Positions 29,923-63,654 of a stretch of 64,000 nucleotides of DNA are shown here, piece after piece. The notes beneath the pieces are model-generated. The model made no database searches, had not been told where the DNA came from, and saw only the letters and a list, made by a program, of their open reading frames with translations. This stretch comes from an uncultured Acidobacteriota bacterium (lineage in GTDB: Bacteria > Acidobacteriota > Thermoanaerobaculia > UBA5066 > Gp7-AA6), in assembly GCA_963773905.1 (NCBI GenBank), contig CAVZDB010000008.1, forward strand, positions 506,905 to 570,904. Direction: 5' to 3'. The translations under genes were made by a program, and so were the position numbers. How positions within the stretch are numbered: the stretch's first letter is position 1; each line of letters begins with the position of its first letter.

Positions 29923-29927
29923 GGCGA

Positions 29928-32763: not shown

Positions 32764-34983
32764 ATGGCATCTCCTCCGGCGGCCCTTCGACGGCTCACGC
32801 GAGGCGGCGCGCTCGCGCTGCAAATCGCCGTCGGGCTCGCCATGTCCGGGGTTTCCCTCGCTGCGGGAGATGGAGGGCGCGCGGCCGTGTCGGGCGTCCA
32901 TCGTCCGGCTAAGGCCCGGGCAAAGCGCGGAGATTCCGCGCCGCCGCCGGCGTCGCTCGCCGCGCGTCTCGAGACGAGCCTGCCGGGCCCGTGGCCGCTC
33001 TTCCCGCCGACCAACTGGTGGAACACCGAGGTCGCGAGCGCGCCGCTCGACACCGACTCCGCTGCCTACATCGGGTTCATCAACCAGGGAGGCGTCAAGC
33101 ACCTGCACCCCGACCTCGGCGGAACGCTCGACGACGGCATCCACATCTACGGGATGCCCTACCTCGTGGTCGACGGCGCGCAGCCCAAGAAGACCGTCAA
33201 CTTCCACTACTACGACGAGAGCGACGGCGTGAACCACCCGGGGAACAATCCCTATCCGTTCTACCCGATCCCCGACCAGGCGATCACCCAGGCGCACTGG
33301 ATCGAGGGCGGCGATCCGGGCAACGTGGACGACCGCGGGTCCGAGGATCGCCACATGCTGATCGTGGACCGGGATCACCGCCGCCTCTACGAGCTCTACA
33401 ACGTCTACTACGACTCCGGCCTGCAGCAGTGGCAGGCGGGTTCCGGAGCGTTCTTCGACCTGACGCGCGACGACCGGCGTCCGGAAGGCTGGACGTCGGC
33501 GGACGCGGCCGGCCTCGCGATCCTGCCGGGCCTGCTCCGCTACGAGGAGGTCTACGGCCCGGACGAGATCCGCCACGCCCTGCGGTTCACGGTGCGGGCC
33601 ACCAACGGGTACGTCTATCCCGCGAGCCACGTGGCCGGCTCGACCAGCGGCGCTCTCCCGATGGGCGCGCGCCTGCGGCTCAAGGCCTCCAGGGACATCT
33701 CCGGCTACGACCCCGCGGTGCAGAAGATCTTCCGCGCGATGAAGACCTATGGGCTTCTGGTCGCCGACAACGGCACCGACATGTACATCGGCGGAACATG
33801 GGACGACCGCTGGGACAACGACGTCCTGAATCCGGCTTTCAATGATCTGACCGCCTCCGACTTCGAGGTGGTGAAGCTCGGCTGGTCGCCGCCGCTCGCG
33901 GCCGCGCTCACCGTCGACGCGGTCCCGGGAGCCGGAGGCTCCTCCAACGGCAACGGCATGCTCGAGCCGGGGGAGGCGGTCACGGTCGCGCCGAGCTGGC
34001 AGGGCTCCTCCACCGATCCGCCCGCCGCCCTCTCCGGCGTGGCCTCGGCGGCGAGCGGTCCGGGCGGCGCGACCTACGCGCTCGACGACGCCTCCGCGGC
34101 GTACGGCTCTCCGGGAGCCGGCGCGCCGGCGAGCTGCGCCGACGCCACCGGGAATTGCTACGCCTTCTCCGTCTCGAACCCGGCGTCGCGTCCGGCGGCG
34201 CACTGGGACGCAAGCTTCCACGAAACGGTGAACGGCTCGGCGGCGAGGTCGTGGACGCTCCACGTCGGGAAGAGCTTCGCCGACGTGCCGGCCGATCATC
34301 CCTTCTACGCCGCGATCGAGACGCTGTTCCACGGCGGCGTGACCGCCGGCTGCGGACCCGGGATCGACTGCCCCGACGCCGGTGTCACGCGCGCCGAGAT
34401 GGCGATCTTTCTTCTGAAGGCGAAGCTCGGTACCGACTACGCTCCGCCGCCGGGATCGGGCACGGTGTTCGGCGACGTCCCTCCCGGCTCCTTCGGCCAG
34501 AGCTGGATCGAGGACCTCTTCGCGGCAGGCATCTCGGCGGGCTGCGGAAACGGCAACTACTGCCCGGACGAGGTCGTCACGCGCGCGCAGATGGCGGTCT
34601 TTCTTCTCAAGGCGAGCCGGGGCAGCGACTACGTCCCGCCCCCCGCGGCGGGCGTGTTCGACGACGTGCCCTTCGACGATCCCTACGCGCCGTGGATCGA
34701 GGAGCTCTTCCACTCGGGGATCACCGCCGGCTGCGGAGGCGCCGAATACTGCCCGAACGACCCCAACACGCGCGGGCAGATGGCGGTGTTCCTGGAGCTT
34801 GACGTTCGGGCTGAAGTTGTACGGACCTTAGTACGGGCCGTAGGGGCGGGGCTTGCCCCCGCCCGGGCGGCCGCAAGGGCCGCCCCTACACCGGAAAGAG
34901 AAGCGCGAAGCCCGATCTACCGCAGCGCCTGCGTCAGCAGTTTGTGGAAGTGGTGCACACCGTTTTCCCGCAGCACCGAGTAG
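32764..34983 (+). CDS. Secreted protein with uncharacterised N-terminal ~370-aa domain and three C-terminal SLH domains (C-terminus uncertain)
   Basis: 3x SLH-like repeats at the C-terminus. The ORF has no stop after the last SLH and reads through the REP-like element at 34839-34886; the start is also ambiguous. Confidence 0.65.
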   Translation: MASPPAALRRLTRGGALALQIAVGLAMSGVSLAAGDGGRAAVSGVHRPAKARAKRGDSAPPPASLAARLETSLPGPWPLFPPTNWWNTEVASAPLDTDSAAYIGFINQGGVKHLHPDLGGTLDDGIHIYGMPYLVVDGAQPKKTVNFHYYDESDGVNHPGNNPYPFYPIPDQAITQAHWIEGGDPGNVDDRGSEDRHMLIVDRDHRRLYELYNVYYDSGLQQWQAGSGAFFDLTRDDRRPEGWTSADAAGLAILPGLLRYEEVYGPDEIRHALRFTVRATNGYVYPASHVAGSTSGALPMGARLRLKASRDISGYDPAVQKIFRAMKTYGLLVADNGTDMYIGGTWDDRWDNDVLNPAFNDLTASDFEVVKLGWSPPLAAALTVDAVPGAGGSSNGNGMLEPGEAVTVAPSWQGSSTDPPAALSGVASAASGPGGATYALDDASAAYGSPGAGAPASCADATGNCYAFSVSNPASRPAAHWDASFHETVNGSAARSWTLHVGKSFADVPADHPFYAAIETLFHGGVTAGCGPGIDCPDAGVTRAEMAIFLLKAKLGTDYAPPPGSGTVFGDVPPGSFGQSWIEDLFAAGISAGCGNGNYCPDEVVTRAQMAVFLLKASRGSDYVPPPAAGVFDDVPFDDPYAPWIEELFHSGITAGCGGAEYCPNDPNTRGQMAVFLELDVRAEVVRTLVRAVGAGLAPARAAARAAPTPEREARSPIYRSACVSSLWKWCTPFSRSTE
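34839..34886. repeat. REP-like twin-hairpin element, copy 1
   Basis: 'cgtaggggcggggcttgcccccgcccgggcggccgcaagggccgcccct': GGGCGGGG-CUUGC-CCCCGCCC and GGGCGGCC-GCAAG-GGCCGCCC stem-loops; nearly identical to 53286-53343. Confidence 0.6.
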
Positions 34984-43327: not shown

Positions 43328-45863
43328 TTCAATCCCTCGAGCACGAAGAGATCCGAAAGCCAGCGTTCGTACGTGTGAACGTAGGACTGCCCGTCCCGAG
43401 AGAGACGAACCTTGCCCCAGAGGTCGCCGGGGCTCGGTCCCAACTGGAGGGGCTGCAGCTCCTTGAAGAGCCGCCGCTGGCCGGTCGACCGATCGAGCAA
43501 CCAGATCTTGCCCGGGGAATCGTCCCTTTGAAGATAGAGAGCCCTACCGTCGATGCTCCACTGAGTCGGGAGATCGCCCGACAGAAGTCCCTGGATGGGA
43601 AGTGCGTCACCCCCCGTCGACGGGATAGAGCGCGGCGACTCCGTCCCGCAGACCGACGACGAGCTTCCCGTCCGGCGAGACTGCCTTCGCAAACCGAATC
43701 ATCGGGACGCCCTCTGGTGTGACCGGAGCTGGCGGAGATCCCTTCACGGATTGGACGAAAATGCGCTCTGGATGACCCGGCTGCTGCGCGGTAAAAAGGA
43801 ACCCTTCTCCGTCCGGTAGCCAATCGACCCCGAACGCCCCCGGATACTCGAGTCCGTCGCTCGGGAGGTTGCGCGTTTCGCCCGATGTGGACTGCAACCG
43901 AATGCTTGGCGCGAAGAACTCCGGGCGGCACACCGCCCACTTCCCGTCCGGAGACAGTGCCGAGCAGAACCCCTCGCCCAGCGGCACGGCGGCGGACCCG
44001 TCCGTCTTGCGGACGTAGCTCATCGCGCTTTCCCATCCCGGCTCCTTCTCGGCGAAGAGCAGCAGCCTGCCATCCGCCGACAGATCCAGCGGCACCGTGG
44101 CGTCGAGCCACGTGTATCCGTGCTCGTGCTCGTCGCCGGGAAACCGCCCGAGAACCTCCCACCGCTCGGAGCCACGCTCGAAGAGTGCCCGGCCTTCGCG
44201 GGAAATGTCGAACAGACTGAAGTCTCCAGGCAGGGAGATGAGCGCTCGCTCCCGGCCGGCAAGCGTCGTCGCGAACAGGTTGGTCGAGCCATTGACGATC
44301 CGGGTGAACCAGATTCGTCGCCCACCGGGCGACCAACCGAACTCGCCTCCCCCGGTGGCCAGCTTCGTCGCGGTCTTGCTCCGGTCCACGACGACCAGTC
44401 CGACGCCGGACTCACGGGCGACGACGAGATCACCCCGGGGCGAGACCCGAATGCGACCTCCACATTTTTCGCAGACCGTGTTCCCGATGGGGAACTCGAC
44501 CCGAGGTCCATTGCCCCCTGTTCGCACGATGGCCAGGCTCTTCCCGTCGGGCGCCCAGTCCGCTTGGGCGACGTCGCGTTCGCGCACTCGCGGCTCTCCG
44601 CCTCCTAGAGACGCGATCGCAAGAACCTGGGCGCCGTCGGATTCCCGCATCAACGCCATCTCGCCCGATGTCGAGACGGACAGGATGACCGCGTCGAAGA
44701 TGCCGAGAGATCGCGACCCGTGGCTGCCCGGCCGCGTCTGCAGGAGCTCCAGCTTCTCGCCGCCTCGCCCCACGCTGTAGACGATGGTCTCGCCGTCCGG
44801 CTCGAACCGCGCGTTGTGGATGTTCTCCTTCTTAAACGTCACCTGCTGGAAGCGGGGCACCGAGACGTTCTTCGGCCGCCAGAGCCAGCGGGCCGCGAGG
44901 GCCCCGATCGCAAGCGAGATCGCCATAGCCGCGAGCACGAGAGCGCGAAGAGAACGGCGCGGCCGATCGATCGCGACTGAGCCGCCGGACGTTGCGGCCT
45001 CGAACAGGCGGTCGCGGACCGTGGCGAGCTCGCGCGCCAGGTCCTTGGTCGAGGCGTAGCGATTCTCGCGGATCTTTCGCGAGGCAGCGCTCGGCGATCC
45101 AGCGCAACGGGGCCGGCACTTGCGGATTGAGCTGCGCGATGGGCTCCGGCTCCGTGTTCAGGATCGCGCCCAGCGTGTCGATGGCGGTCTTCTTCAGGAA
45201 GGCACGCTTGCCCGTCGCCATCTCGTAGAGCACCGACCCGAACGAGAATTGATCCGACCGAAAGTCCAGGGCCTCGCCGCTGGCCTGCTCCGGCGACATG
45301 TAGCCGACCGTGCCGACGACGACCCCCGGCGTGGTTCCCGTCATCGTGGGCAGATGCGAGCCCTCGCCGCTGCCCGAACCCGTCGAGCTCAGCTTGGCCA
45401 GACCGAAGTCCAGGATCTTGACCAAGCCGTCCCTGGTGACCATCACGTTCTCGGGCTTCAGGTCCCGATGCACGATCCCCGCCTCGTGCGCCTTGGCCAG
45501 GCCCTCGGCGACCGAGGTGGCGAGCGGGAGCAGGCGCTTCACCGGCAACGCGCCGGAGGCCAGCAGCTCTCGCAGCGTCTTGCCCTCGACCAGCTCCATC
45601 GCGATCCAGGAGACGCCGTCGGTAGAACCGATGTCGTAGATCGTGACGATGCACGGGTGGTTCAGGGCCGAGGCGGCGCGGGATTCCTTCTCGAAGCGCT
45701 TGAGCCGCTCGGGATCCGAGGCGACCGCCGCGGGCAGGACCTTGATCGCCACCTCGCGCGCCAGCCGCGTGTCCCGCGCGCGAAAGACCTCGCCCATCCC
45801 GCCCGCGCCGAGCGGCGAAAGAATCTCGTAGGGCCCCAGTCGCGATCCGGCCGCCAGGGTCAT
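43324..45863 (-). pseudogene. Ser/Thr kinase-beta-propeller paralog 2, >=2 frameshifts
   Basis: The kinase domain (ORF 44832..45863) is ~90% identical to paralog 1. The propeller continues in ORF 43607..44938 and ORF 43324..43692. One shift is at a C6 run 43610-43615, another near 45060-45100. Confidence 0.75.
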
Positions 45864-45927
45864 TCGAGGACCTGAACCGGACTCTCGCCGGTTTGGGACG
45901 CACGCCTCGGCGATCGGCGGAAGGCGC

Positions 45928-48434
45928 TCACGGCTTCAGGCCGTCGATCAGCCAGAGGTTCGAGAGCGATTGGCCAATTTCGTAGACGTAACCTCGTCCA
46001 TCCGGGGTCATCCATGCAGCCGACGAGCCCGGAAGCTCCTTGACGAGCTCCCGCCGTCCCGACGCCAGGTCGACACGCGCGATGCTGCCGTCCGTCGTCG
46101 AACGAACGTACAGAGATCGCCCGTTCGGGGTAAAGCAAATCACTTCTTCATTCTGCCCGCTCGCCGGCTCGGGAACGGTCGCTCCCTTCTCGATGGGATA
46201 GAGCGACCAGACGCCAGCCGAACGGTTCCAGGCCGCGACGAGCTTTCCGTCCGGCGAGACCGCGTGCCAACCGAAAGGAAGGAAGACTCCGTCGGCGGTC
46301 ACCGGATGCGCGTCTTCACCCTCCAGAGTCACGCTGTAGAGCCGATGCTTGTCGTCCGCCGTCTTCCCGGCCAGGAGCACCCGCTTCCCGTCGGGGAAAA
46401 AGGTCCCTCCACTGTCGAACTCGGCACCGGGGGGGCCTTGAGGACTCGGGGCAGGCCCGCCCCTGTGGGCAGAAGGATCGTGTCGTCCCCACGCCGGCAC
46501 AGCGCCCACTTCCCATCCGGTGAGAGCGCCATGGCCCCTCCGTCGCCCAGTCGGATTGCGGGGGAGCCGTCCATTCGGCGCAGGTACACGCCCGCTCTCG
46601 ATTCGCCGCCTCCCTCGATGAAGAGAACCGTCTGGCCGTCCGGGGAAATGTCCGCGGGAAACGACTCGTTGAGCCAGGAAAGGTCCCTCTCCCGGGTTTC
46701 GCCCGATGCCTGTCCTTTCATCTGGGCCCGGTTCAGGGTCCGCTCCGCCAGAATGCGCTCGTCCTTGCCGATGTCGTGCAGCAGGAACTTCCCGGGAAGC
46801 GTCGCGATCAGTCGCGCGGGGCCGCCGACCTTCATTGCGAGGACCTCGGTCGTGGCGCCCGCAGCCGACAGCATCCAGATCTGATCGGAGCTCGTCGACC
46901 AGCCGTAGCCCGAGACGCTGCCCTCGAAGACCTTTCTCTGCTTTCCCGTCCCTGGATCCACGAGCATCAGCGACTCGGGACTTGAAATCAGGATTCCATC
47001 TCCGCGGGGCGAGAACCGGGGACGGCCCAGCCAGCCTTTCTTCTCGAGTAGAGCCTTGCCGAGCGGATACTCCAGACGTTGGCCGGTTCCGTCGGTCGCA
47101 ACTACCGCCGCGAGTCCGGTCCCGTCCGGACTCCACTCCGCGAAAAAGACGCGTTCGAGCAGCTCCCGTGGCGCACCTCCCGCGAGGGGCACTTCCGCCA
47201 GCGTACCGGGCCAGCTGGGGCCCCCGAGCAGGATTGCCATCTCGCCGGAGGAGGAAATGGACTCGATGTCCGCGTTCATCCCCAGTGGGCGGGACTCGGG
47301 AGCGTCCAGCCGAGTCGAGAGCAGCTCGAACGGCTTGAAATCCCGTGTGACGCCATAGACGACCGTCTGGCCGTCGGGCGCGAACCGCGCCGATAGGACC
47401 GTCGCATCACCGAAGGTGAGCTGCTTGAAGCGGGGGAGGGATGGCGCAGGCGCCTTCCAGAGCAGCTTGCCGGCCAGGAGTCCGAGAGCGAGCGCGACGG
47501 CCAGTGCCGCAGCCGGCACGAGGATCGGCCGCTTCCGTGCGGTCGCCGCCACTTCGCTGGTCGCCGACGCCTCGGTGAGGCGTTCTCGGAGGGTCGCGAG
47601 ATCGCGCGCGAGGTCGCCGGTGGTCCCATAGCGGCCCTCCGGCTCCTTGGAGAGGCAGCGCTCGACGATCCAGCGCAGGGGAGCTGGGACCGACGGGTTG
47701 ATCGACGCGATCGGCGGCGGATCCTCGTTCAGGATCGCGCCGAGCGTGTCGATCGCCGTCTTCTTCTGAAATGCCCGCTTGCCCGTCGCCATCTCGTAGA
47801 GGATCGAGCCGAACGAGAACTGGTCCGACCGAAAGTCCAGGGCCTCGCCGCTGGCCTGCTCCGGCGACATGTAGCCGACCGTTCCCACCACGACACCGGG
47901 CGTCGTCCCCGTCATCGTCGGCAGGGCCGATCCCTCGCCGCTGCCGGACATCGTCGAGGTCAGCTTCGCCAGACCGAAGTCCAGCACCTTGACGAGGCCG
48001 CTCTTCGTCACCATCACGTTCTCGGGCTTCAGGTCCCGGTGCACGATCCCGGCCTCGTGCGCCTTGGCCAGGCCATCGGCAATCTGCGGCGCGATCTGCA
48101 GCAGCCTCTTGACCGGCAGGGCGCCGCTCGCCAGCAGCTCCCGCAGCGTCGCCCCCTCCACCTTCTCCATCGCGATCCAGGAGACGCCCCCGGTGGAACC
48201 GATGTCGTAGATCGTGACGATGTTGGGATGGTTGAGGGCCGAGGCCGAACGTGCCTCCTTCTCGAACCGCTTGAGCCGCTCGGCGTCCGAGGCGACGGCC
48301 GCCGGCAGCACCTTGATCGCCACTTCGCGAGAGAGTCGCTCGTCCTTCGCCCGATACACCTCGCCCATGCCCCCGGCGCCGATGGGAGAGAGGATCTCGT
48401 AAGGGCCCAGGCGCGTTCCCGTCTCGATCGTCAT
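45928..48434 (-). pseudogene. Ser/Thr kinase-beta-propeller paralog 3, one frameshift
   Basis: Kinase and most of the propeller lie in ORF 46329..48434; the C-terminal ~160 aa lie in the ORF 45928..47136 frame. The shift is at a G7 run 46429-46435. Confidence 0.75.
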
Positions 48435-48444
48435 CGCGTACTCG

Positions 48445-51407
48445 TCAGAACGAGACGCGGACCGCCGCGCGGAAGAGCCGTGCTCCTGAGCGATCGGTGA
48501 TCAGGCCGTAGTTGGGGTTGTTCGAGGCTTGATTCGGATCGTAGATGGTATCCGGGTAGCCGACCTGTTGCTGATCCCTCCACGTCGCGTCCTGCGCGGT
48601 GCGAATCTGGTTGTTGAAGAGATTGAAGACGTAGGCCTGAAGCGTGGCTGTGACCGGGCCGAGGAGGATCGGATACGAGAGCGTGAGGTTGGAGTCCCAC
48701 TCCATCGGGAGGCGGCCGGCGTAGCCCTTGGGAACGAGGTGGATCGTCCCGCCGTAGAGGTCGTTGAAGTACCCGTACTGGTTGAACGGAGGACCGGAGC
48801 GCAGCCAGGTCTGAAGCCCGGCCGACAGGCCGAACGGTGCGGTGTAGAAGCCGTCGACCCGCAGCTGGTGCGGCCGGTCCAGATAGAGGCGGCCATAGGC
48901 GTTGTGAAGAAGCTGCGGATAGTCGAAGTCGGCATTGATACCCGGATCGGTCTGGCCTCCGAAGAGCTCACTGACCTCGCCGTCGTAGTTGCCGCGCAGG
49001 GACGAGAACACGTAGGACGCCTGAATCCAGAGACTTGGCGAGGGAGAGGCGCGGGCCACGAGCTCGATGCCGCGATAGATCCGCTTGGCCTCCGGCATCG
49101 GGGGCGCGCCAAACAGACTCTCCCCGGTGTTGCAGTTGTTAAAGTCGCCGTTGAGCCCGGTGCAGTAGTGGAAGTCGCCGCGGGAGATGGGGCCGTCCGA
49201 GCCCGGATTCATGAGGCCGCAGCTCGACCCTCCGTTCTCCGGAGCGCTGTAGTCCAGGTCGCAGCGGTCTTCGATCGCGCTCGAGAGTGTGCGATAGGTC
49301 GCCTTCAACCCCACAGAGAACTTGCCGCCCGATAGAGTCTTCTCGACTCCGAACGTCAGTTCCTCCTGCGAGATCCCCTTCAGGCCGTCGTCCACCGGTT
49401 CCCCGTTCGAGTTGCCCGAGATGTTCGAGGTCTCATGGTGGATGACGTTTTGGTCTTGAGCCACCCCGACCGGATCGAAGTTGTAGGTTTGGGCGAAGAA
49501 GTTGCCGCTGTAGACGCGAATGGCGAGGTCCGTGGGCAGGCCGTAGGAGAAACGCCCGGCGAACGCATAGACCTTCGAAGACCCGTCGCCCAGGGGATCC
49601 CAGACGATGCCCAATCGCGGTTGCCACTCGTTCGTCCGGATGACGGTCTCGTTCAGGAAGTTGATGACCCATTCGCGGTCGAAGCGAAGGCCCGCGTTGA
49701 CCGTGAGGTTCGGCAACCCCTTCCAGGAGTCCTGAAGGTAGGCGCCGAAGTCTCGCGTGACCGCCGAGCTGGCCCAGTTCGTTGGGGTCAGGTCTTCGGT
49801 GCTGGTGGCGTAGAAGTCGTGGCGGTAGTAGTCCTGCCCGTACTCGTTGTAATGCCGGACGCGCTGTTTGCCCGAGAAGGCGGTTACGGTGTCCGTCTGT
49901 CCCGCCTGATAGTCCCCGCCGACCTTGAGCTCGTGGGAGCCCCGGTAGATCGCCGCGTCGGCCCGAATCTGGTCGCGGTGCGACTTGCTGTTGTTGGCGG
50001 GCCCGAACACGAAGCCGAGCCCCCCTTGCACGGAGTTCGGCTCCCCCGGCGTGTCGCAGGGCGCGTCGGGGGTTCCGACTCCCTCTGGGCAGGTCCAGTC
50101 CTCGGTGCGCACCTGCAGCCCCGGGCCCGTGGGCACGAGGCTGTACCGGTCCTGATGCCGCGCGGCCTGCAGCGTGAGCAGGGCCGCAGACCCGAAGAGC
50201 TGATTCGCGCGCAGGCCGAAGTCGGTTCCGCCGATGGAGCGGGTGGATTCCCAGGTTCCGGGGTCCGGATTGGAGATCGGCGGCCCGCCCTGGCGTGGAT
50301 CGGAGAGATTCGCCCCGTCATTCGTGGTCGGGTCGGCGAAGACGCTGCCGACGAGGGTCGTGCCTGCGGCGAGGTTCCAGGTCAGCTTTCCCGAGTAGAG
50401 GTTGTCGGTGTTTCCGACCGGAAACTCGAGTGTGTCGGGTACGAGCTCGCTCGAGACGTAGCGCGAGATCTGCGCGGGATTGGTGACCCGGTCGTACGCG
50501 CCGAAGAACCAGAGCCGGTCCTTGACGAGAAATCCCCCGAGGTCGACCCCGTAGTCCGCGCGCGTGTAGCTCGCGATCCGCATTCCGGTCAGGTCCGAGT
50601 CGACTCCGGGCTCGAACGTGCGCTCGGCCTGCAGCGCATCCGAGTCGTAGTAGACGAAGCCCTCGCCGTGGAAGTTATTGCCGCCCGACTTGGTGATCAC
50701 GTTGATGACGCCGCCGAGCGCCCGGCCGTACTCGGCCTGGTAGCCGCCGGTCTTGACCTCGACCTCCTGGATGAACTCGTTGTTGATGGCCTTGCCCTGC
50801 ATTCCCTTCAGGACGTTGGTGGTGTTGACTCCGTCGATGACCCACTGGTGTCCACCGAGGTCGAGCCGTAGATCGAGAGCGCGAGGGAGCGTCCCTGCGT
50901 TTCGCCCAGGTCCGGCAAGACCCCGGGATTCGAACGCACGATGTCCGCGTAGTTGCGAGCGACGGGAAGGTGCGTGATCACCCGGCTGCTGTAATTCGTG
51001 CCGGTCGTCGTCGACGTCGTGTCCACCAGGGGCGTCGTGCCCGTGACTGCCACCGACTCCTGCAATTCGGGCTCCAGCGTGAAGTCGGCGGTGACCGTCG
51101 CGTCGAGCGTGACCGTGGCCTCCATCTCGGCGTCGTGGAATCCGGGCATCGAGGCCTTGACTATGTAGACCCCGGGAGGCAGCGCGGGGAAGCGAAACCG
51201 CCCATCCCCTTCGGTCGTCGCGGTGCGCACGCCCTGCAGATTCGGACTCGAGATCTGGACAGCGACGCCGGGCAGCGGACCCCGAGCCGTGTCGCGGGCC
51301 GTGCCACTGATGGTGCCCGTGGTCGTCTGCGCGTCGACCGGCGCGTACAGAAGCAGCCACAGACTGACGGCCGCCAGGGCCTCGCCGAAGCCCATCCTTT
51401 GTGCCAA
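48445..51407 (-). pseudogene. TonB-dependent receptor with N-terminal carboxypeptidase-regulatory-like domain, one frameshift
   Basis: Signal peptide and the CarbopepD_reg-like domain lie in ORF 50808..51407. The plug ('NEFIQEVEVKTGGYQAEYGRALGGVINVITKSGGN') and barrel lie in ORF 48445..51360, ending in a C-terminal Phe. Total span is not a multiple of 3; the shift is near 50855-50875. Confidence 0.8.
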
Positions 51408-56816: not shown

Positions 56817-56944
56817 CGTGAGCGGACGAAAAGCGAATCGTGCGAGTCGAGCGGTAGAAGGAGCGGATTATCTGCTTGGGCCCCTTCGCCTTGTCAATAC
56901 ACAAATCCTTGGGAAGCGCGTCACCGTTCGGCGACAATCGATCC

Positions 56945-57580
56945 ATGCGGCCCCGGATCCAGGCTCTCCTCGTCGGAGGAGCCCTGCTCCTCTTTCTGCT
57001 TCGCCACCCGGTCGAGCTGCGCCTGCTGCGCCATCGCACGGCGCAGCTCCCGGACTCATCCGTTGAGCCGAAGCAGCTTCCGGACACGCGGCCGCCCTTT
57101 CCGCATTCCGCGGGAGGGCATCGCTATAGGGTGATCCCGCGCTTCCGGTGGGACGAATCGGCTCGGGTCGTCGGAGCAGAATCGCATCATTTTGGCGCAG
57201 CCGCGTCGCTTCTCCCCGTGGACCTCGCGCTCGCCTGGGGCCCGCTCCTCGCGCCGCCCTACGCCGGCAAGATCTCGTACAGCCAGTATGCGCGGTACTA
57301 CTTCTGGCGGACGCGCGACGGTTCCCTCGACCGCGGCATCATCGTGTCGCACTCCGCCAATACCCACCTGATCCCGGCGACCTCGCGCCTGAGCACGGCG
57401 ATCGCCTGCGTCGCGAAGGGCGACGACGTGCGGCTCGAGGGCTGGCTCGTCGACGTCGAGGGCATCGACGATCCGGGATTTCGCTGGGGTACGAGCACGA
57501 CGCGCGAGGACGAGGGACCGAACTCCTGCGAGACGGTCTACCTCGAGAGGTTGACGATCAACCGGAGGGTGTACGAGTAG
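56945..57580 (+). CDS. Hypothetical membrane-anchored protein
   Basis: ATG at 56945 ('MRPRIQALLVGGALLLFLL'); no recognisable domain. Confidence 0.45.
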   Translation: MRPRIQALLVGGALLLFLLRHPVELRLLRHRTAQLPDSSVEPKQLPDTRPPFPHSAGGHRYRVIPRFRWDESARVVGAESHHFGAAASLLPVDLALAWGPLLAPPYAGKISYSQYARYYFWRTRDGSLDRGIIVSHSANTHLIPATSRLSTAIACVAKGDDVRLEGWLVDVEGIDDPGFRWGTSTTREDEGPNSCETVYLERLTINRRVYE

Positions 57581-58759
57581 CTAGAAGCGAAGCAGCTCTG
57601 CAGGCGCCTGGCCCGGGTTTCCTGAGGCAATCCAGAATTCGAGGCCGTCGCTACAAGCTCCCCAAGGAAATGTCGATCCCGCGGTGGAATTGCCGATCGG
57701 CGCAAGGTCGGAAGCATTCCAAACAGAGACGCTCGGCGGCGCCGTCTGATTCGTAATCAAGACACGTTGTCCGTCGAACGCTGTGCCGTAAGGATTGCCA
57801 AGGCCGTTCCCCCTCAAAGTGGCGATGAGCAGCCCCGTCGACGCCTGCACGACGGCCACGGTGTTCGAGCCGTTGATCGGGACCCAGATGTTTACTCCGT
57901 CAAACACGGGGAAGAGAGGATGGGTTCCGACCGGGACCGTCTGGATGACACTCCCGCTCGAGTCGAGCCTCAGGAGGGCGCCGGCGCCGAAATCGGAAAT
58001 CCAGATATCGCTACCGTCGAAGAGCGCTCCCTCGGGAAGCGAGAATCCAGTCGTCACCGTCATGACCGTCCATGGCAGGCTGGTACTCGGAGTCACCCGC
58101 GAGACAGAAGCGCCTCCATAGTTCGCAGTCCAGAGAGATGCTCCGTCGAAGGCGATGCCGAGTGGAACTCCACCGAGGTTCGAGGCGACTTCCGTCGCAT
58201 CTCCCGCAGGTTGGCTCGGGTCGATGAGGAAGAGCCCACCGGTGTTGCCGCCCGGAGTTCCGTCGCCTGTTACGAAGATTCGGCCCATTGCGGGTAAGAG
58301 GCCAAATCCCCCGGGGATACCGGTCCAGGCTTCGAGAAGCCTCCCGTCGTTCGCACGCACCCGCGCCGCGCCTCCGTTCACGGCCGCCCAGACGTCCATT
58401 CCATCAGCGGCACATGATTTCGGATAGTTCCCGAGAATCGTCGAGCCGAGCCCGATGTCCCAGTGCGGCGTCGTCGTCCACCACTGCCCGAGCGCCGCCC
58501 GGCGGCTGTTGCGAGCGAGCGACTGGTTGAGCCCCTTCGCGATGAAGACCGCGCCCTGGCCGCGGGTCAGCGGATCGTCGGGCGAGAACGTCGTCGCCGA
58601 GGTGCCGGCGGTGATGCCGAGGTAGTAGAGCTCCAGGATGAACGGACAGAAGGCGGGCGTCACGTCGGTGAACGGCCCGCATTGGTCCTGGACGATCTTC
58701 ACGGCGCCGCCGGCGAGGACGGCGGCGAGGGCGAGGGGGAGAATCAGGATCTTCTTCAT
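57581..58759 (-). CDS. Secreted SLH-domain + YVTN/NHL-like beta-propeller protein, paralog 1
   Basis: Signal 'MKKILILPLALAAVLAGGA'; 'FTDVTPAFCPFILELYYLGITAGTSATTFSPDDPLTRGQGAVFIAKGL' (SLH-like); ~40-aa propeller repeats ('DGxxIWVxN...V..V.AS.G'). Confidence 0.75.
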   Translation of the reverse strand: MKKILILPLALAAVLAGGAVKIVQDQCGPFTDVTPAFCPFILELYYLGITAGTSATTFSPDDPLTRGQGAVFIAKGLNQSLARNSRRAALGQWWTTTPHWDIGLGSTILGNYPKSCAADGMDVWAAVNGGAARVRANDGRLLEAWTGIPGGFGLLPAMGRIFVTGDGTPGGNTGGLFLIDPSQPAGDATEVASNLGGVPLGIAFDGASLWTANYGGASVSRVTPSTSLPWTVMTVTTGFSLPEGALFDGSDIWISDFGAGALLRLDSSGSVIQTVPVGTHPLFPVFDGVNIWVPINGSNTVAVVQASTGLLIATLRGNGLGNPYGTAFDGQRVLITNQTAPPSVSVWNASDLAPIGNSTAGSTFPWGACSDGLEFWIASGNPGQAPAELLRF

Positions 58760-59936
58760 CAGAATCTGGCGAGCTGTCCGGTCCCCGCGAGCGAGATCCA
58801 GAAGTTGAGCCCGTCGCTGCACGCGAAGTAGGGGAGCGACGCGGTTCCCGTCGAGACGAAACCGAGCGGCCGCAGGTCCGCCGCGTTCCAGAACGAGATG
58901 GTGTCCGCGTTGGGGCTCGTGACGAGCACGCGCTGCCCGTCGAAGGCGACCGCGTTGCCGCCGGAGACGCCGTTGCCGGAGAGAGTCGCGGCGATCGTGC
59001 CGTCGCTCGCACGCACCACCGTGACGCCGTCGGGGTTGGGAACCCAGAGGTTCGCGCCGTCGAACGCGATGAACTGATTCGTGCCGGTGTGGACGTTCTG
59101 GATGACCGCACCGCTGGCGTCGAGCCGGAGGAGATCGCCGAGTGCGGGATCCGCGACCCAGACGCTCGTGCCGTCGAAGGTGATGCCGATGGGCAGGGAG
59201 AACCCGGTCGTGACCGTCGTGACCGGCCAGGGGGCGGACGAGGCCGGCGTGACGATCGCGACGGAGGACCCGCCGGGGACCACGGGGTTCGTGACCCAGA
59301 TCCGGGATCCGTCGAACGCGAGGTCGATCGGGTTGTTGCCAATGTCGGTCGCGACCGTCGTCACCGGGCCCGCGGGCTGGCCGGGATCGATCATGTAGAG
59401 AACGCCCGGAGTCGTCTGGGCGATCGCGCCTCCATTCGTGCCCGCGACGAAGATGCGTCCCATCGCGGCGAGGAGCCCGTAGCCGCCGGCGGCGCCGGTC
59501 CAGGTCTCGAGGAGCTTGCCGTCGCTCGCACGAACCCGATAGACCGTGCCGGAGCGAATTACCCAGAGGTCGGCGCCGTCGCTGACGACCTGGCGGATCC
59601 CCTCATCGAGGGAGGTGACGCCGAGCCCGAGGTCCCAGTGCGGCGTCGTCGTCCACCACTGGCCGAGCGCGGCGCGGCGGCTGTTGCGGGCGAGCGACTG
59701 GTTGAGCCCCTTCGCGATGAAAACCGCGCCCTGGCCGCGCGTCAGCGGGTCGTCCGGCGAGAAGGTCGTCGCGGAGGTCCCGGCGGTGATCCCGAGGTAG
59801 TAGAGCTCGAGGATGTACGGACAGAAGGCCGGCGTCACGTCGGTGAACGGCCCGCACTGGTCCTGCACGATCCGGGTCGCGCCGCCGGCGAGCACCGCGC
59901 AGAGCGCCGCCGCAACCAGAATCCACAACCGTTTCA
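58759..59936 (-). CDS. SLH + YVTN-like beta-propeller protein, paralog 2
   Basis: Same architecture; probable TTG start at 59936 ('LKRLWILVAAALCAVLAGG'). Its stop overlaps the paralog 1 start. Confidence 0.7.
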
Positions 59937-59938
59937 AC

Positions 59939-61081
59939 TCAGTACCTCGCGATCTGGCCGATGTTCGAAAGCGACAGCCAGAAGCCGTTTCCGTCGCTGC
60001 ACGCGATGAGCGGATGCGACGCGTCGCCCGTCGGAAAGCTGCCGAGCGCGGTGAAGTCCGCGGCCCGGAAGAGGGAGACGGCGTTGGCGTTGTAGCTGGT
60101 GACCAGCATGCGCGCTCCATCGAACGCGACGGAGGACGGGCTCTCCGGGAGGCCGGACAGCGTCGTCACGATTTCTCCCGTGGAGGCCCGCACGACGGTG
60201 ACGCTGTCGTCCAGCCAGTTCGGTACCCAGATGTTCTCGCCGTCGAAGGCGGGAAAGGACGCTCCGAGCCCGACCGGCACGGTCTGAAGGATGGCGCCGC
60301 TCGCATCCAGCCGAAGCAGCGTCCCGACTTGGTAGTCCGTGATCCAGATGTTGGTTCCGTCGAAGAGGACGCCCTCGGGCGTCGCGAACCCGGTCGTGAC
60401 GTTGGTGATCGCCCAGGGGATCGAGGGCCCGGGCGTGACGATCGAGACGGAGCCGCCGTTGTTCGCGACCCAGATCTTTGAGCCGTCGAACGTGATGCCC
60501 GCCGAGATGCCAAGGGCCGCCACGGTGGTGACCGGTCCCGGCGGCTGGCTCGGATCGATCATCATGAGCGGACCGACGCCGGAGGTCACGAAGACGCGGC
60601 CCATCGCGACGAGGACGCAGGTCGCGTTGTTGACGTTGGTCCAGGTGTCGAGGACCTTCCCGTCGGACGCACGTACCCGAGCCACCGTGCTGTCCGCCTG
60701 GTTCGCCACCCAGAGGTCCGCGCCGTCCGAGGCGATGCCGATGGGGTGTGTCCCGACCGTCACGACGCCGAGCCCGACGTCCCAGTGCGGCGTCGTCGTC
60801 CACCACTGCCCGAGCGCCGCGCGGCGCGAGGAGCGCGCGAGCGACTGGTTCAAGCCCTTCGCGATGAACACGGCGCCCTGGCCGCGCGTGAGCGGGTCAT
60901 CCGGCGAGAAGGTCGTCGCCGAGGTGCCGGCGGTGATGCCGAGGTAGTAGAGCTCGAGGATGTACGGGCAGAACGCCGGCGTCACATCGGTGAACGGGCC
61001 GCACTGGTCCTGCACGATCCGGGTCGCGCCGCCGGCGAAGACGGCGGCGAGGGCGAGAGGCAGGGCCAGGAGCTTCCTCAC
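59939..61081 (-). CDS. SLH + YVTN-like beta-propeller protein, paralog 3
   Basis: 'MRKLLALPLALAAVFAGGATRIVQDQCGPFTDVTPAFCPYILELYYLGITAG...' followed by propeller repeats. Confidence 0.75.
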   Translation of the reverse strand: MRKLLALPLALAAVFAGGATRIVQDQCGPFTDVTPAFCPYILELYYLGITAGTSATTFSPDDPLTRGQGAVFIAKGLNQSLARSSRRAALGQWWTTTPHWDVGLGVVTVGTHPIGIASDGADLWVANQADSTVARVRASDGKVLDTWTNVNNATCVLVAMGRVFVTSGVGPLMMIDPSQPPGPVTTVAALGISAGITFDGSKIWVANNGGSVSIVTPGPSIPWAITNVTTGFATPEGVLFDGTNIWITDYQVGTLLRLDASGAILQTVPVGLGASFPAFDGENIWVPNWLDDSVTVVRASTGEIVTTLSGLPESPSSVAFDGARMLVTSYNANAVSLFRAADFTALGSFPTGDASHPLIACSDGNGFWLSLSNIGQIARY

Positions 61082-61084
61082 GGG

Positions 61085-62266
61085 TCAAAAGCGGGCGAGC
61101 TCGCCGACGTCGCTCAGCGTCATCCAGAAGTTCAGCCCATCGCTGCACACGCCGAGCGGCGAGGTGTTCGTTCCGAGCGGCAAGGAGCCGAGCGGGCTCA
61201 GATCGGCGGCCTTCCAGAAGAAGGCGAGGTGATTGCTCTCGTCGGCGATCGCGATTCGCTCCCCGTCGAAGCCCGCGGCGATCGCGTAGCCGAGGCCGTC
61301 CTGGGTGAGGCTGGCAACGATCGAGCCATCTGAGGCGCGAACCACGTCGACACGGCTGTTCGCGTTGGGTACCCAGATGTTCGCCCCGTCGAACACGGGT
61401 GCGTTCGGATTTCCGTCCACGAAGACAGGCTGAACGACGTTGCCGCTCGAATCGAGCCTCAACAGGTATCCCGCGCCAGAGCTCGTCGCCCAGACGTCCG
61501 TGCCGTCGAACAGCAGCCCGCGGAGGCCGGGGTAGGTGCTGTCGACGTTGACGACGGTCCAGGGCGTCGTTGCGCCTGGCGTCACGATCGAGACGGAAGA
61601 GGATCCCGAGAATCCTCCGTAGTTCGCCGTCCAGATCCGTGAGCCGTCGAAGGCGACTGCGAATGGAGAGTCGCCGAGGTCGGTCGCGACGGCAACGACG
61701 TCGCCCGCGGGCAGGCTCGGATCGATCATGTAGAGCTTGCCGGGATTGCTCTGGCCGGTGACGAACACCCGACCCATTGCGATGAGCACTGCGGTCGCGT
61801 TGGTGGCGCCGGTCCACGTTTCCAGAAGCCTGCCATCGCTCGCGCGGACTCGCGAGACGGTTGCGCTGTCGATGTTGGCCACCCAGATGTCGGCTCCGTC
61901 CGAGGCGACTCCCGATGGCCTCGTACCGACGGCGGTCAGCGCGAGATTCGACGCCGACTTCGTCGTCCACCACTGCCCGAGCGCGGCGCGACGGCTGTTG
62001 CGCGCGAGCGACTGATTCAGCCCCTTCGCGATGAAGACCGCGCCCTGGCCGCGCGTGAGCGGATCGTCGGGCGAGAACGTCGTCGGCGAGGTGCCGGCGG
62101 TGATGCCGAGGTAGTAGAGCTCGAGGATGTACGGACAGAACGCCGGTGTCACGTCGGTGAACGGTCCGCACTGGTCCTGGACGATCTTGACGGCGCCTCC
62201 GGCGAGGACGGCGCAGATCACCACCGTGCCGAGAAGGAGGGGTCGAACCGAAGAGGTAACCCTCAT
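61085..62266 (-). CDS. SLH + YVTN-like beta-propeller protein, paralog 4
   Basis: Same N-terminal module and repeats. Upstream is TTGACA-N17-GCATAT plus GGAGG (62275-62330, minus strand). Confidence 0.75.
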   Translation of the reverse strand: MRVTSSVRPLLLGTVVICAVLAGGAVKIVQDQCGPFTDVTPAFCPYILELYYLGITAGTSPTTFSPDDPLTRGQGAVFIAKGLNQSLARNSRRAALGQWWTTKSASNLALTAVGTRPSGVASDGADIWVANIDSATVSRVRASDGRLLETWTGATNATAVLIAMGRVFVTGQSNPGKLYMIDPSLPAGDVVAVATDLGDSPFAVAFDGSRIWTANYGGFSGSSSVSIVTPGATTPWTVVNVDSTYPGLRGLLFDGTDVWATSSGAGYLLRLDSSGNVVQPVFVDGNPNAPVFDGANIWVPNANSRVDVVRASDGSIVASLTQDGLGYAIAAGFDGERIAIADESNHLAFFWKAADLSPLGSLPLGTNTSPLGVCSDGLNFWMTLSDVGELARF

Positions 62267-62337
62267 AGGCGTCCTCCCAGGAAGTTGGGAGGAGCATATG
62301 CCATTACAGCATAGAGCGTGTCAAGAAAAGAAGAACT

Positions 62338-63654
62338 TCAGGCGAACTCCCAGCGGCGGGCGACCCGGCGCGCGATCAGGAAGAAAAGGACGCCAAGCCC
62401 CGTCAGGACGAGCACTTGCGGCCAGATGTTCCACACCGGCTCGTCCCGCCAGAAGATCTTCTGGAAGCCGTCGAGCGCCCACGCGTTGATCGTGATCAAC
62501 CCGAACTTCTGCATCCCCTCCGGCATCAGGAACCGCGGGTAGAGGCTCCCCCCGAGGGCCGACATCACGAGGATCGAGAGGTTCGCCAGCGCGACGAGCT
62601 GCATGCGCGAGTGGCAGACCGAGGCCAGCATGAGACCGAAGGTCGAGGCGGCGATCGCGGTCGCGACCGTCATGATCAGGAATCCCGGGAAGTGCCCCGG
62701 GGTGAAGAGCTCGATCCCGAAGAGGAGCGCGCCCCACGTGAACATGAGCAGGAGCTGCACGATCCCGACGCCGGCCAGGTAGAGCAGCTTGCCGAGGAGG
62801 AGGCGCGTCATCGAGACGCGGGTCGCGAGGATGCGGTCGAGCGTGCCGCTCTCGGCCTCCTCGATGAGCGCGCCGCCCGCGCCCGTCGCGGAGAAGAGGA
62901 GGAACATCACGCCGAGCCCGGCCGCGTAGAAGGTCACGGTCGGGTTGCGCTTCTTCTCGCCCAGGATGTCGCGGACGTCCACGGCGACGATCCCTCCGCC
63001 GAAGCCGCCATTTGGTTCGGCGGAGCCGGACGCGGATGCGCCCGGACTCGTCCGGGGCGACGCGCTCGCGCGATCGAGCGCGCCCAGGACCGTCTCCATC
63101 CGCTCCTTCTGCTCCGGGGTCAGGCCGCCGCTCCAGCGGTCCACCTCGTCCATGCCGGTGCGCGCGAGCGACGCCGGCATCGCCGTGATCGCGACCTTCT
63201 GGATCAGGCCGAAGACGACCTGCGGCGCGATGGGGTCGGAGCTGTCGGACAGGAGCCTGAGCGCGAGCCGTTCCTTTCCCGGCCCGAACGCCAGCGGCCG
63301 CTCGCCGAAGCCCTTCGGGATGACGAGCGCGACGGGGACGTCGCCCTTCTTGACGGCCTGCTCCGCCGTGGCCGCCGTGTAGAGCGGACCGTTCGGGTCC
63401 TTCTCGTCGCCCGGCTTCATCCCGACCGAGAGGCCGGCCTCCGCCTTCAACCCCGAGACGAAGCGTCGCGACGTCGGCGACTGGTCTTCGTCCACGACGA
63501 CCAAACTGACCTTGCGCGTGGTCGAGCGGCCGCTGCCCGCGAAGATGCCCGCGAAGATCGAGAAGAAGGCGACGGGCAGGACGAAGGCCAGCACGAATGC
63601 CGCGCGGTCGCGGCGCAGGTTCATCAGCCGGTTCCAGGCGACGGCGAGGATCAT
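62338..63654 (-). CDS. ABC-2 family transporter permease
   Basis: N-terminal TM, a large extracytoplasmic loop, and five C-terminal TM helices typical of ABC-2 permeases. Confidence 0.8.
   Translation of the reverse strand: MILAVAWNRLMNLRRDRAAFVLAFVLPVAFFSIFAGIFAGSGRSTTRKVSLVVVDEDQSPTSRRFVSGLKAEAGLSVGMKPGDEKDPNGPLYTAATAEQAVKKGDVPVALVIPKGFGERPLAFGPGKERLALRLLSDSSDPIAPQVVFGLIQKVAITAMPASLARTGMDEVDRWSGGLTPEQKERMETVLGALDRASASPRTSPGASASGSAEPNGGFGGGIVAVDVRDILGEKKRNPTVTFYAAGLGVMFLLFSATGAGGALIEEAESGTLDRILATRVSMTRLLLGKLLYLAGVGIVQLLLMFTWGALLFGIELFTPGHFPGFLIMTVATAIAASTFGLMLASVCHSRMQLVALANLSILVMSALGGSLYPRFLMPEGMQKFGLITINAWALDGFQKIFWRDEPVWNIWPQVLVLTGLGVLFFLIARRVARRWEFA

Follow-up and report, generated by a model that had tools for sequence, protein, structure and literature searches.

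The window, a 64-kb stretch of DNA from an uncultured soil member of the Acidobacteriota (class Thermoanaerobaculia), carries four tandem paralogs on the minus strand at positions 57581-62266, each of which codes for a signal peptide-like N-terminus, a single SLH domain and a seven-bladed beta-propeller with one hypervariable face. On balance, and with slightly better than even confidence, we take the products to be non-enzymatic binding proteins that are tethered to the cell wall and whose repertoire turns over by recombination; they are probably trimeric and probably reside beneath the outer membrane.

The first gene of the array, g4 (61085-62266, minus strand), starts with ATG, has the motif GGGAGGA ahead of the start and encodes 393 amino acids comprising signal peptide, single SLH and seven-bladed propeller. 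It is followed on the same strand by g3 (59939-61081, GTG start, 380 aa), g2 (58759-59937, TTG start, 392 aa) and g1 (57581-58759, ATG start, 392 aa), the last gene of the array. The gap between g4 and g3 is 3 nt (TGA-CCC-GTG) and that between g3 and g2 is 1 nt (TGA-G-TTG), while g2 and g1 overlap by 1 nt (TGATG). ORF coordinates and spacing bear out the tight tandem packing claimed in a preliminary description of this locus. Of the two stop/start overlaps reported there, the one at 58759 holds, whereas the one at 59936-59939 is the 1-nt gap between g3 and g2. We read the four genes as one translationally coupled unit.

Per-domain comparison of g1-g4 yielded identities between paralogs of 97-99% over residues 22-96, but of only 48-57% in the propeller part, in line with the near-identical N-terminus and diverged propeller noted before. 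On the nucleotide level, a 300-nt block with 85-87% identity returns every 1147-1175 nt along the array. This anchor block is located at 61934-62233 in g4, 60767-61066 in g3, 59620-59919 in g2 and 58445-58744 in g1 (all minus strand), and the longest stretches shared exactly by paralogs (32-48 nt) are confined to it. Within the genes, the blade motif returns at a spacing of about 114-141 nt. The propeller nucleotides differ by about 40% between copies and comparable arrays are present in independent assemblies, which rules out an assembly artefact and upholds the copy number of four.

The SLH domain (Pfam PF00395) was detected once in each of the four proteins, at residues ~29-74, with scores of 35.2-40.7 bits. 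These values are above the cutoff of 20.8, indicating that the segment formerly described as SLH-like is a genuine SLH domain. The TRAE-type motif reads TRGQ in the array proteins and aligns to TRGD of SbsB and TRYE of OmpM; all 84 sequences compared have R66 and Q68. An invariant cysteine of the propeller family (Cys38) is aligned to the canonical sugar-binding Trp of SLH domains, so that the ligand may not be the canonical pyruvylated polymer. Among the scanned genes of the 64-kb window, no pyruvyl transferase of the CsaB type was found. The N-terminus is signal-peptide-like, with n, h and c regions and without a lipobox, and on this basis the products are predicted to be exported by the Sec pathway. 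The single SLH, with the conserved Arg of the TRAE-type motif, would then hold the protein non-covalently on a cell-wall polymer.

SLH domains tether proteins to cell-wall polymers and not to the S-layer, and a complete binding unit consists of three of them. The earlier term 'S-layer-anchored' is thus not appropriate for g1-g4, which contain one SLH per chain instead of three. Triple-SLH proteins of monoderm bacteria, namely B. anthracis Sap, G. stearothermophilus SbsB and P. alvei SpaA, share with the array proteins a genuine SLH in which the TRAE-type Arg is kept, and the same logic of an N-terminal anchor with a variable passenger; SLH3 of SbsB matches the array SLH at E ~1e-12, and Sap is among the matches as well. 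They differ from the array proteins in the number of SLH domains and in the sugar-groove Trp, for which the latter have the invariant Cys. In addition, the array host is not a monoderm but an outer-membrane-bearing acidobacterium, and genes of the family occur in tandem arrays of up to 9 and in sets of at least 74 in one genome.

OmpM/SlpA of diderm Terrabacteria (PDB 8BYS, 8BZ2; PMC10628300) likewise features one N-terminal SLH per chain after the signal peptide, and the OmpM stalk shows a weak profile similarity to the array anchor (E=3e-4). Beyond that, the two differ: OmpM/SlpA has a long coiled-coil stalk and a C-terminal beta-barrel, whereas the SLH of the array proteins is followed only by a helix of ~20 residues. 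From the OmpM/SlpA-type combination of SLH, trimeric stalk and barrel, only the SLH is present, and the C-terminus is a propeller. As this passenger is soluble and no barrel is present, the array proteins cannot tether the outer membrane. SLH ligand grooves sit between three SLH units, and the single-SLH protein OmpM is trimeric (PMC10628300), which sets a precedent for three chains supplying three SLH units. In AlphaFold2 models of g3 and g1, the SLH region of the monomer reached a pLDDT of only 47-72, which fits an obligately oligomeric domain. Given that a functional SLH unit requires three SLH domains, the array proteins most likely assemble as trimers via their single SLH, even if the missing OmpM-like coiled-coil stalk argues against it. 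Mixed trimers of different paralogs may form, since the anchor module is near-identical among them.

The same models show seven blades (7 x 4 strands) with a propeller pLDDT of ~95-99. The overall pLDDT was 88 for g3, with values >95 in the propeller (residues 106-380), and 88.6 for g1. Comparison of the family profile with the YVTN propeller of a Methanosarcina mazei surface-layer protein (PDB 1L0Q) yielded the best profile match (E=1.5e-29, 106 bits, four overlapping stretches), and both share the seven-bladed fold of ~40-residue repeats (Foldseek E=5e-15). In the archaeal protein, the propeller is accompanied by PKD domains and an SLH is absent, whereas the array proteins carry an SLH and, taken singly, score below the TIGR02276 cutoff. 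The TIGR02276 repeat HMM gave 14.3 and 17.7 bits in only two of the four proteins (cutoff 27.85), and YVTN, NHL and SGL models matched single sequences below threshold only. The proposed architecture of signal peptide, SLH and YVTN-type propeller with ~40-residue repeats is supported by the SLH scores, the seven modelled blades and the profile match to 1L0Q. The HMM searches suggested for it gave a mixed outcome, with SLH above threshold but TIGR02276 and NHL below it for single sequences.

Structural neighbours found with Foldseek were Vgb, 1L0Q, Lp49 and YncE. Virginiamycin B lyase was the top match (E=1e-16, TM ~0.78 on target), and Vgb (PDB 2Z2O), the closest solved fold, has a similar per-blade 'DG..W' motif. 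Together with weak SGL and Vgb sequence matches, this similarity could point to wall-anchored enzymes with an active site as in Vgb lyase, gluconolactonase or NHL-like propellers and with diverse substrates. We consider such a function very unlikely. Vgb is only 18% identical to the array propellers, without a family-level sequence assignment, and its sequence match amounts to 23 bits over a 50-residue repeat; SGL reached 18.6 bits in g3 only, below its threshold of 26.3. Searches of Pfam and NCBIfam returned solely sub-threshold matches to SGL, NHL, ScyE, YncE and TIGR03866, so that an enzyme assignment was rejected; membership of a known enzyme family, named beforehand as one finding that would overturn the earlier proposal, did not emerge. 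The propeller residues that are invariant in the family make up a structural motif repeated in each blade (F-D-G...W, R-A-S-D-G), located on strands and in A-B and C-D loops. Outside this motif no propeller residue is invariant and the B-C and D-A loops vary most, as read from the alignment. The face on which propeller active sites presumably lie is hypervariable in the array family.

Loops were assigned to faces according to propeller topology convention and DSSP strands. Column entropy is 2.83 bits for the B-C loops and 2.34 bits for the D-A loops, compared to 0.76 bits (A-B), 1.02 bits (C-D) and 0.62 bits for anchor residues 22-96. Variability is hence focused on the B-C and D-A loops, i.e. 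on one propeller face, in contrast to a conserved anchor and opposite face. Propellers usually bind their ligands on the B-C/D-A loop side, and the passenger may therefore be read as a non-enzymatic binding module whose specificity differs between paralogs. It would consist of a seven-bladed YVTN-type scaffold with a conserved A-B/C-D face and a hypervariable B-C/D-A face. Pairwise dN/dS in the variable loops ranges from 0.11 to 0.55, which does not demonstrate positive selection. As these values are below 1, relaxed constraint and diversifying selection account equally well for the loop variability.

The content of the array differs strongly between close relatives. In the closest relative, L002, the flanking genes are 84-90% identical, but a clear ortholog exists for g2 alone (L002_2, 93% propeller identity); g1, g3 and g4 reach at most 58% identity. 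With the L004 array, none of the four propellers is in common. The anchor behaves differently: its identity is 0.939 within and 0.855 between genomes (0/2000 permutations), compared to 0.499 and 0.489 for the propeller (244/2000 permutations). The nearest anchor neighbour is found in the same genome for 29 of 42 genes, the nearest propeller neighbour for five of 42, and all paralogs in a given array have the same genome-specific anchor residues. Within each genome there is concerted evolution of the anchor module, but not of the propellers. Recent gene conversion cannot alone account for the anchor identity, since the anchors of paralogs differ at 19-29% of codons encoding the same amino acid, and anchors from different genomes are highly conserved as well. 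Purifying selection combined with moderate homogenisation fits the anchor identity better. The ~300-nt anchor block with its exact matches of 32-48 nt could serve as substrate for unequal crossing-over and gene conversion, and the array would then evolve by recombination. Such recombination would explain the presence of 1-9 copies at one locus, the genome-specific anchor signatures and the replacement of propellers between close relatives.

A surface binding or variable-antigen-like role had been suggested previously. Its notion of a variable binding surface is supported by the variability on one propeller face and the content turnover between close relatives. In such a scenario, the proteins would be displayed on the outside of the cell as variable adhesins, S-layer components or antigens and would show a strain-variable face to phages, predators, hosts or substrates. 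The single hypervariable face, the fast change of copy number and content between relatives, the surface-layer origin of 1L0Q (the closest solved propeller by sequence profile) and the presence of the leptospiral antigen Lp49 among the fold neighbours are in line with this. The dN/dS values, which are below 1, and the envelope argue against it. A TonB-dependent-receptor-like barrel is encoded in the 64-kb window, indicating that the organism has an outer membrane, and known SLH ligands of diderm bacteria are located under the outer membrane (PMC10628300). Moreover, profile and sequence scans of the four proteins revealed no outer-membrane anchor, lipobox, autotransporter domain or C-terminal sorting signal. 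We regard surface exposure as unlikely: judged from the envelope type of the phylum, a Sec-exported, SLH-tethered protein probably resides on the cell wall beneath the outer membrane.

Directly upstream of g4, separated by 71 nt, lies a gene for an ABC-2 family permease (62338-63654, minus strand). It adjoins the gene of the partner ABC ATPase, which begins at 63651 and continues beyond the edge of the window. Downstream, the array is bordered in syntenic loci by a convergent ORF (56876-57580, plus strand) without functional assignment by Pfam, NCBIfam or PADLOC; its stop codon abuts the stop codon of g1. The order of ABC-2 exporter, array and conserved convergent gene recurs in ~14 Thermoanaerobaculia/Acidobacteriota assemblies, with 1 to 9 array copies. 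The products might thus be periplasmic accessory subunits of the exporter, similar to the YVTN seven-bladed propellers of PQQ-associated ABC operons (TIGR03866, YncE-like). YncE is also an exported seven-bladed YVTN-type propeller encoded beside an ABC-2-type transporter, and the family profile matches it at E=2e-7; g3 weakly matches TIGR03866 and the permease weakly matches PedC (TIGR03861). Furthermore, the ATPase and permease genes are on the same strand in the ~14 assemblies at any copy number, and in three of the seven syntenic loci that were aligned, the permease stop is followed by a gap of just ~45-55 nt without TTGACA. Even so, a role as exporter subunits appears quite unlikely. YncE has no SLH, the TIGR03866 score of 18.2 bits is far below the cutoff of 287.3, no PQQ-context transport operon or nearby PQQ enzyme was found, and the transporter itself scores best, though sub-threshold, to DrrA/NodI-type models. 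It occurs in 16 of 84 sequence sets (duplicates of one contig counted) and only at the syntenic locus; ~60 other loci with >100 family genes are without such a transporter, so that a family-wide functional link was rejected. One exporter would also not need 1-9 interchangeable subunits of unrelated specificity.

Tandem diverged paralogs, fast-shifting content between strains, very large expansions in some genomes and a likely envelope location would also suit an arsenal of immunity or decoy proteins against envelope-targeting toxins or phage proteins, built up like orphan immunity gene arrays. This has a very small probability in our view, as toxin, secretion-system and mobile-element genes are absent among the listed neighbours and the flanks are conserved housekeeping-like genes. 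PADLOC gave no match for the four array proteins or the convergent neighbour, and assignment to a defence system was rejected.

In the leader of g4, a single TTGACA-N17-GCATAT promoter had been proposed. The hexamer TTGACA is exact (62319-62324, minus strand), but GCATAT matches TATAAT at only two of six positions, no acceptable -10 box is present at a spacing of 16-18 nt, and no sigma-70-like site passed a scan of the leader. In an alignment of seven syntenic leaders, TTGACA is kept in the four closest loci only, whereas CATAT(G/A)CTCCTCCC...GGGAGGA is common to all seven. The proposed -10 region is better explained by a conserved hairpin (62265-62299, minus strand; dG -23.1 kcal/mol, z -4.35), in which CAUAUGCUCCUCCC base-pairs with the Shine-Dalgarno sequence GGGAGGA (62272-62278) as well as with some of the g4 start codon, and the CATAT element forms the sequestering 5' arm. 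The hairpin is confined to the syntenic array locus, matches no Rfam family and shows no compensatory changes.

A family search yielded >2495 matches, all of ~380-400 aa and with SLH. A total of 395 stretches were confirmed, almost all in MAGs of Acidobacteriota, one of which has at least 74 full-length copies. The 'four-gene cassette' described before is therefore correct for this locus but understated, given 1 to 9 copies at the same locus elsewhere and a family that is thousands strong. The family is large, uncharacterised and almost exclusive to Acidobacteriota MAGs, above all Thermoanaerobaculia; a literature search found no description of this SLH-propeller family, in agreement with the earlier claim of novelty.

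Few soil bacteria are as abundant as the Acidobacteriota, yet little work has been done on their envelopes. Heavy use of SLH anchoring is seen here in an outer-membrane-bearing acidobacterial lineage, in addition to its known occurrence in Gram-positive S-layers and in the outer-membrane tethers of deep-branching diderms. The combination of one SLH with a soluble propeller is a new SLH format. A hotspot locus with 1-9 copies, near-complete replacement of content at 84-90% flank identity, 70+ copies in some genomes and a uniform anchor are typical of genes whose products recognise a changing set of partners, for instance substrates, competitors or phages. Speculatively, and with rather low probability, the single SLH would act as a 'plug' that all paralogs share and that evolves in concert. 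Any three of them could co-assemble through it into a complete cell-wall-binding spindle, yielding combinatorial heterotrimers with three different propeller faces, and recombination at the plug block would continuously swap propeller cassettes in and out, creating a strain-private repertoire of envelope receptors. If true, bacteria with an outer membrane would possess a modular recognition system driven by recombination, for which no description is known from them. Should the trimer or heterotrimer idea be right, the family would offer a simple modular display of variable binding domains on the cell wall, as well as a tractable natural set of propeller variants on a fixed scaffold.

The array consists of four minus-strand paralogs, g4 to g1 in reading order, as established from the ORF listing and by reading the strand itself. 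The first gene, g4 (61085-62266, minus strand, 393 aa), starts with ATG and carries GGGAGGA 6 nt upstream; it is followed on the same strand by g3 (59939-61081, GTG start, 380 aa), g2 (58759-59937, TTG start, 392 aa) and g1 (57581-58759, ATG start, 392 aa). A longer g2 beginning at an upstream ATG was rejected, as this would create a 180-nt overlap with g3 and finds no support in the family alignment. Read directly on the minus strand, the junctions are TGA-CCC-GTG between g4 and g3 (3-nt gap), TGA-G-TTG between g3 and g2 (1-nt gap) and TGATG between g2 and g1 (1-nt overlap), an arrangement typical of translational coupling. The stop codon of g1 directly adjoins that of a convergent, conserved 234-aa ORF on the plus strand (57578-57583); since there is no space for terminators, the convergent transcripts must overlap at this point.

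When each protein was compared with the window by tblastn, exactly four full-length copies, g1-g4, were found. Residues 22-96, the SLH-bearing anchor, are 97-99% identical among the window paralogs, compared to 48-57% for the other ~285 residues. In the nucleotide sequence, a block of 300 nt recurs along the array with 85-87% identity and a period of 1147-1175 nt, and a 42-nt blade motif repeats within the genes at 114-141-nt intervals. Around 40% of the nucleotides in the propeller-coding DNA differ between the window copies and comparable arrays occur in many independent assemblies, which excludes an assembly artefact as the source of the copy number. The observation in the preliminary description, four tandem paralogs with a near-identical N-terminus and diverged propellers, was confirmed; its interpretation is supported in part, and the promoter it proposed was not upheld.

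All four paralogs contain a single SLH domain (35-41 bits, Pfam cutoff 20.8), preceded by an N-terminus, e.g. MRKLLALPLALAAVFAGGA followed by TR, that on reading the sequence resembles a Sec signal peptide and lacks a lipobox. Two invariant cysteines, C27 and C38, flank the start of the SLH domain. C38 occupies the alignment position at which OmpM and SpaA-type SLH domains have their sugar-contacting Trp, and the Arg of the TRAE-type motif, here TRGQ, is invariant (motif roles according to PMC10628300). In single-sequence searches, matches of the C-terminal part to NHL, SGL, YVTN (TIGR02276), ScyE, YncE and TIGR03866 were all below threshold. In the PDB, a profile built from 84 family members matched 1L0Q (E=1.5e-29), which is the YVTN propeller from a surface-layer protein of Methanosarcina mazei, as well as the SbsB SLH domains (E about 1e-12), YncE (E=2e-7) and, in Veillonella OmpM (8BZ2/8BYS), the stalk with its single SLH (E about 3e-4). 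For g3 and g1, the AlphaFold2 models (mean pLDDT 88.2 and 88.6) feature a propeller of seven four-stranded blades from about residue 106 (pLDDT ~95-99), with blade 7 closed by an N-terminal strand. The best Foldseek matches were virginiamycin B lyase, 1L0Q, bacterial WD40 proteins, Lp49 and YncE. The SLH region reached a pLDDT of only 47-72, as would be expected if this domain folds solely within a three-SLH assembly.

Mean column entropies, calculated from an alignment of 84 sequences with strands assigned by DSSP on the model of g3, were 2.83 bits for the B-C loops and 2.34 bits for the D-A loops, compared to 0.76 bits for the A-B loops, 1.02 bits for the C-D loops, 1.1-1.8 bits for the propeller strands and 0.62 bits for anchor residues 22-96. 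In propellers, the B-C and D-A loops lie on one face, by convention the 'top', which is the usual ligand-binding face. Read together with this topology, the entropies indicate that anchor, scaffold and opposite face are conserved, and that the family propeller would present a single hypervariable face formed by the B-C and D-A loops, the face being assigned by the topology convention. An alternative reading as a known enzyme family with conserved catalytic residues gains no support: enzyme matches stayed below threshold, and what is invariant in the propeller across the family are the motifs repeated in each blade, F-D-G..W and R-A-S-D-G, which form no candidate catalytic constellation. Pairwise dN/dS was below 1 throughout (0.11-0.55 in the variable loops, 0.05-0.28 in the strands) and does not demonstrate diversifying or positive selection, even in the variable loops.

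The gene order of the locus was found again in about 14 assemblies and comprises a CPBP/Rce1-like protease (seen in relatives; beyond the window), an ABC ATPase, an ABC-2 permease, the propeller array, a convergent gene of ~211-249 aa with no assigned function and a Tricorn-N/PD40 amidohydrolase. The syntenic arrays hold about 1, 2, 2, 2, 3, 3+, 3+, 4, 4, 4, ~5, ~5-6, 7 and 9 genes. In the locus of the closest relative, L002, the flanking proteins are 89.6% (permease), 84% (convergent gene) and 86.7% (amidohydrolase) identical to those of the window. An ortholog is present there for g2 alone (93% propeller identity), whereas g1, g3 and g4 show at most 58% identity to the L002 array, the background for any family pair. 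None of the window propellers is shared with locus L004, the flanks of which are 82-86% identical, and L079 shares g3 (85% identity). Array content is thus replaced, and not just diverged, in the time that its neighbours take to change by 10-15%. An unrelated ~310-aa gene (L002:9046-10000) splits the L002 array; its product has a signal peptide and, at the C-terminus, a hydrophobic, sorting-signal-like tail. A syntenic array in a long-read Acidobacteriota MAG (L013:5398-11185) is fragmented into many partial HMM matches, reflecting either pseudogenised copies or assembly indel errors.

The anchor evolves differently. Across 44 genes of 13 syntenic arrays, anchor identity was 0.939 within and 0.855 between genomes, compared to 0.499 and 0.489 for the propeller; the observed difference was reached in 0 of 2000 label permutations for the anchor and in 244 of 2000 for the propeller. 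The nearest neighbour was located in the same genome for 29 of 42 anchors and 5 of 42 propellers. In the alignment, all paralogs of an array have a genome-specific anchor signature in common, namely LGITAG/GQGAVFIAKGLNQS in the window, LGVTAG/GQGAVFVAKGLNQA in L002, GQGSVFV in L004, LGVTVG in L080 and CPFVSELY in L081 and L017. The propellers of g2 and its ortholog L002_2 are 93% identical, yet each protein carries the anchor signature of its own genome. L081_2 and L017_1 are the closest pair of orthologs, with propellers 96% identical; here the synonymous divergence of the anchor (0.42) exceeds that of the propeller (0.13-0.19), as conversion by a paralog would be expected to produce. Anchor homogenisation is only moderate: 19-29% of same-amino-acid codons differ between the window anchors, which argues for strong purifying selection as the main cause of their near-identity. 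The longest stretches over which paralogs match exactly (32-48 nt) all fall within the anchor block and are long enough for unequal crossing-over and conversion by RecA-dependent recombination.

The promoter proposed earlier, TTGACA-N17-GCATAT, has to be rejected: no sigma-70-like site ahead of the array passed the scan, and of seven aligned syntenic leaders only those of the four closest genomes contain TTGACA. In the remaining three loci, a gap of only ~45-55 nt after the permease stop suggests read-through from the ABC genes. Common to all seven leaders is CATAT(G/A)CTCCTCCC-N8-10-GGGAGGA-N4-8-ATG, a motif confined to this syntenic locus. In the window leader (62265-62299, minus strand), the anti-SD CUCCUCCC and CAU pair with the Shine-Dalgarno sequence of g4 and with part of its start codon, forming a hairpin of -23.1 kcal/mol (z=-4.35). 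Homologous segments fold similarly (-8.6 to -19.5 kcal/mol); the aligned leaders contain no compensatory changes, and no Rfam family was matched. From these sequence features, the leader is a candidate translational-control or mRNA-stabilising element for g4, and the hairpin may act as a translational switch or thermometer-like element. Expression of g3, g2 and g1 would then depend on translational coupling.

The family is large. A word-indexed search matched more than 2495 proteins, of which the best 120 are all ~330-416 aa long, 115 of them with PF00395. Source names include 'S-layer homology domain-containing protein [Thermoanaerobaculia bacterium]', 'DNA-binding beta-propeller fold protein YncE' and 'hypothetical'. 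An exhaustive profile search (E<=1e-30) yielded 1382 representatives of 50% identity clusters. Among GTDB species representatives, 395 family stretches were confirmed, nearly all from Thermoanaerobaculia, Blastocatellia, Terriglobia or unclassified Acidobacteriota MAGs. Family members also occur on ~2-kb contigs binned as Chloroflexota/Thermomicrobiales (L016, L031), and a 2.9-Mb contig labelled 'uncultured beta proteobacterium' (L074, CAVZQQ010000004.1) carries two copies with 46% identity; such occurrences outside Acidobacteriota could reflect mislabelling, mis-binning or rare transfer. Copies are singletons or form same-strand arrays of up to 9 genes, and counts made with the family HMM on the loci analysed reach at least 74 full-length copies for MAG SMAG_U9343 and no fewer than 33 for SMAG_U9483. 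In some relatives (among matches P0135, P0155, P0123 and P0144), the SLH-propeller unit is fused to the C-terminus of ~1100-aa proteins, doubled (683 aa), or its propeller follows a different N-terminus, so the cassette is used in further architectures too. Elsewhere in the window, three or four Ser/Thr protein kinase genes form a cluster (40775-48500, minus strand), and some of them are fused to PD40/WD40 propeller repeats or lie next to such repeats. The window also encodes a CHASE-domain kinase (3604-5778, plus strand) and a stand-alone NRPS-like protein with AMP-binding, PP-binding and thioesterase domains (7758-10391, minus strand), the latter within DNA that is very rich in GC (75-76% at 8-12 kb).

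The component parts, an SLH domain and a YVTN-type seven-bladed propeller, are already known. Monoderms combine three SLH domains with a passenger and diderm Terrabacteria one SLH domain with a coiled coil and a barrel, whereas this family joins one SLH domain to a soluble propeller. In the literature searched, we found no description of the hypervariable single face, of a 1-9-copy hotspot with cassette replacement, of concerted evolution of the anchor or of expansions to 70 or more copies.

A TonB-dependent-receptor-like outer-membrane barrel encoded in the window indicates that the organism is diderm. A cysteine-rich variant of the SLH repeat (ITAGCG..YCP..TRAQMAVFLLK) occurs as a tandem triplet in each of three other exported proteins: a beta-helix/TIG protein (24169-26823, minus strand), a TIG+SLH+DUF1800 protein (29928-32447, minus strand) and a protein of 739 aa whose SLHs are C-terminal (32764-34983, plus strand). 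SLH anchoring thus appears to be widely used in this genome. The DUF1800 protein, which has gained TIG and three SLH domains N-terminally, adjoins a DUF1501 protein with a twin-arginine-like signal, MSHSRRDFLV..., as read from the sequence; together (28468-32447, minus strand) they are probably a wall-anchored form of the common DUF1800/DUF1501 pair. In diderms studied so far, SLH domains bind peptidoglycan-attached polymers under the outer membrane, and proteins with a single SLH, OmpM for example, obtain their three SLH units through trimer formation (PMC10628300). Based on this precedent and the diderm host, we infer that the g1-g4 products form trimers tethered to the cell wall within the periplasmic space. 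The uniformity of anchors within a genome fits either a shared genome-specific ligand or compatibility in mixed trimers. Each wall-tethered trimer would show propeller faces of paralog-specific specificity in the periplasmic space.
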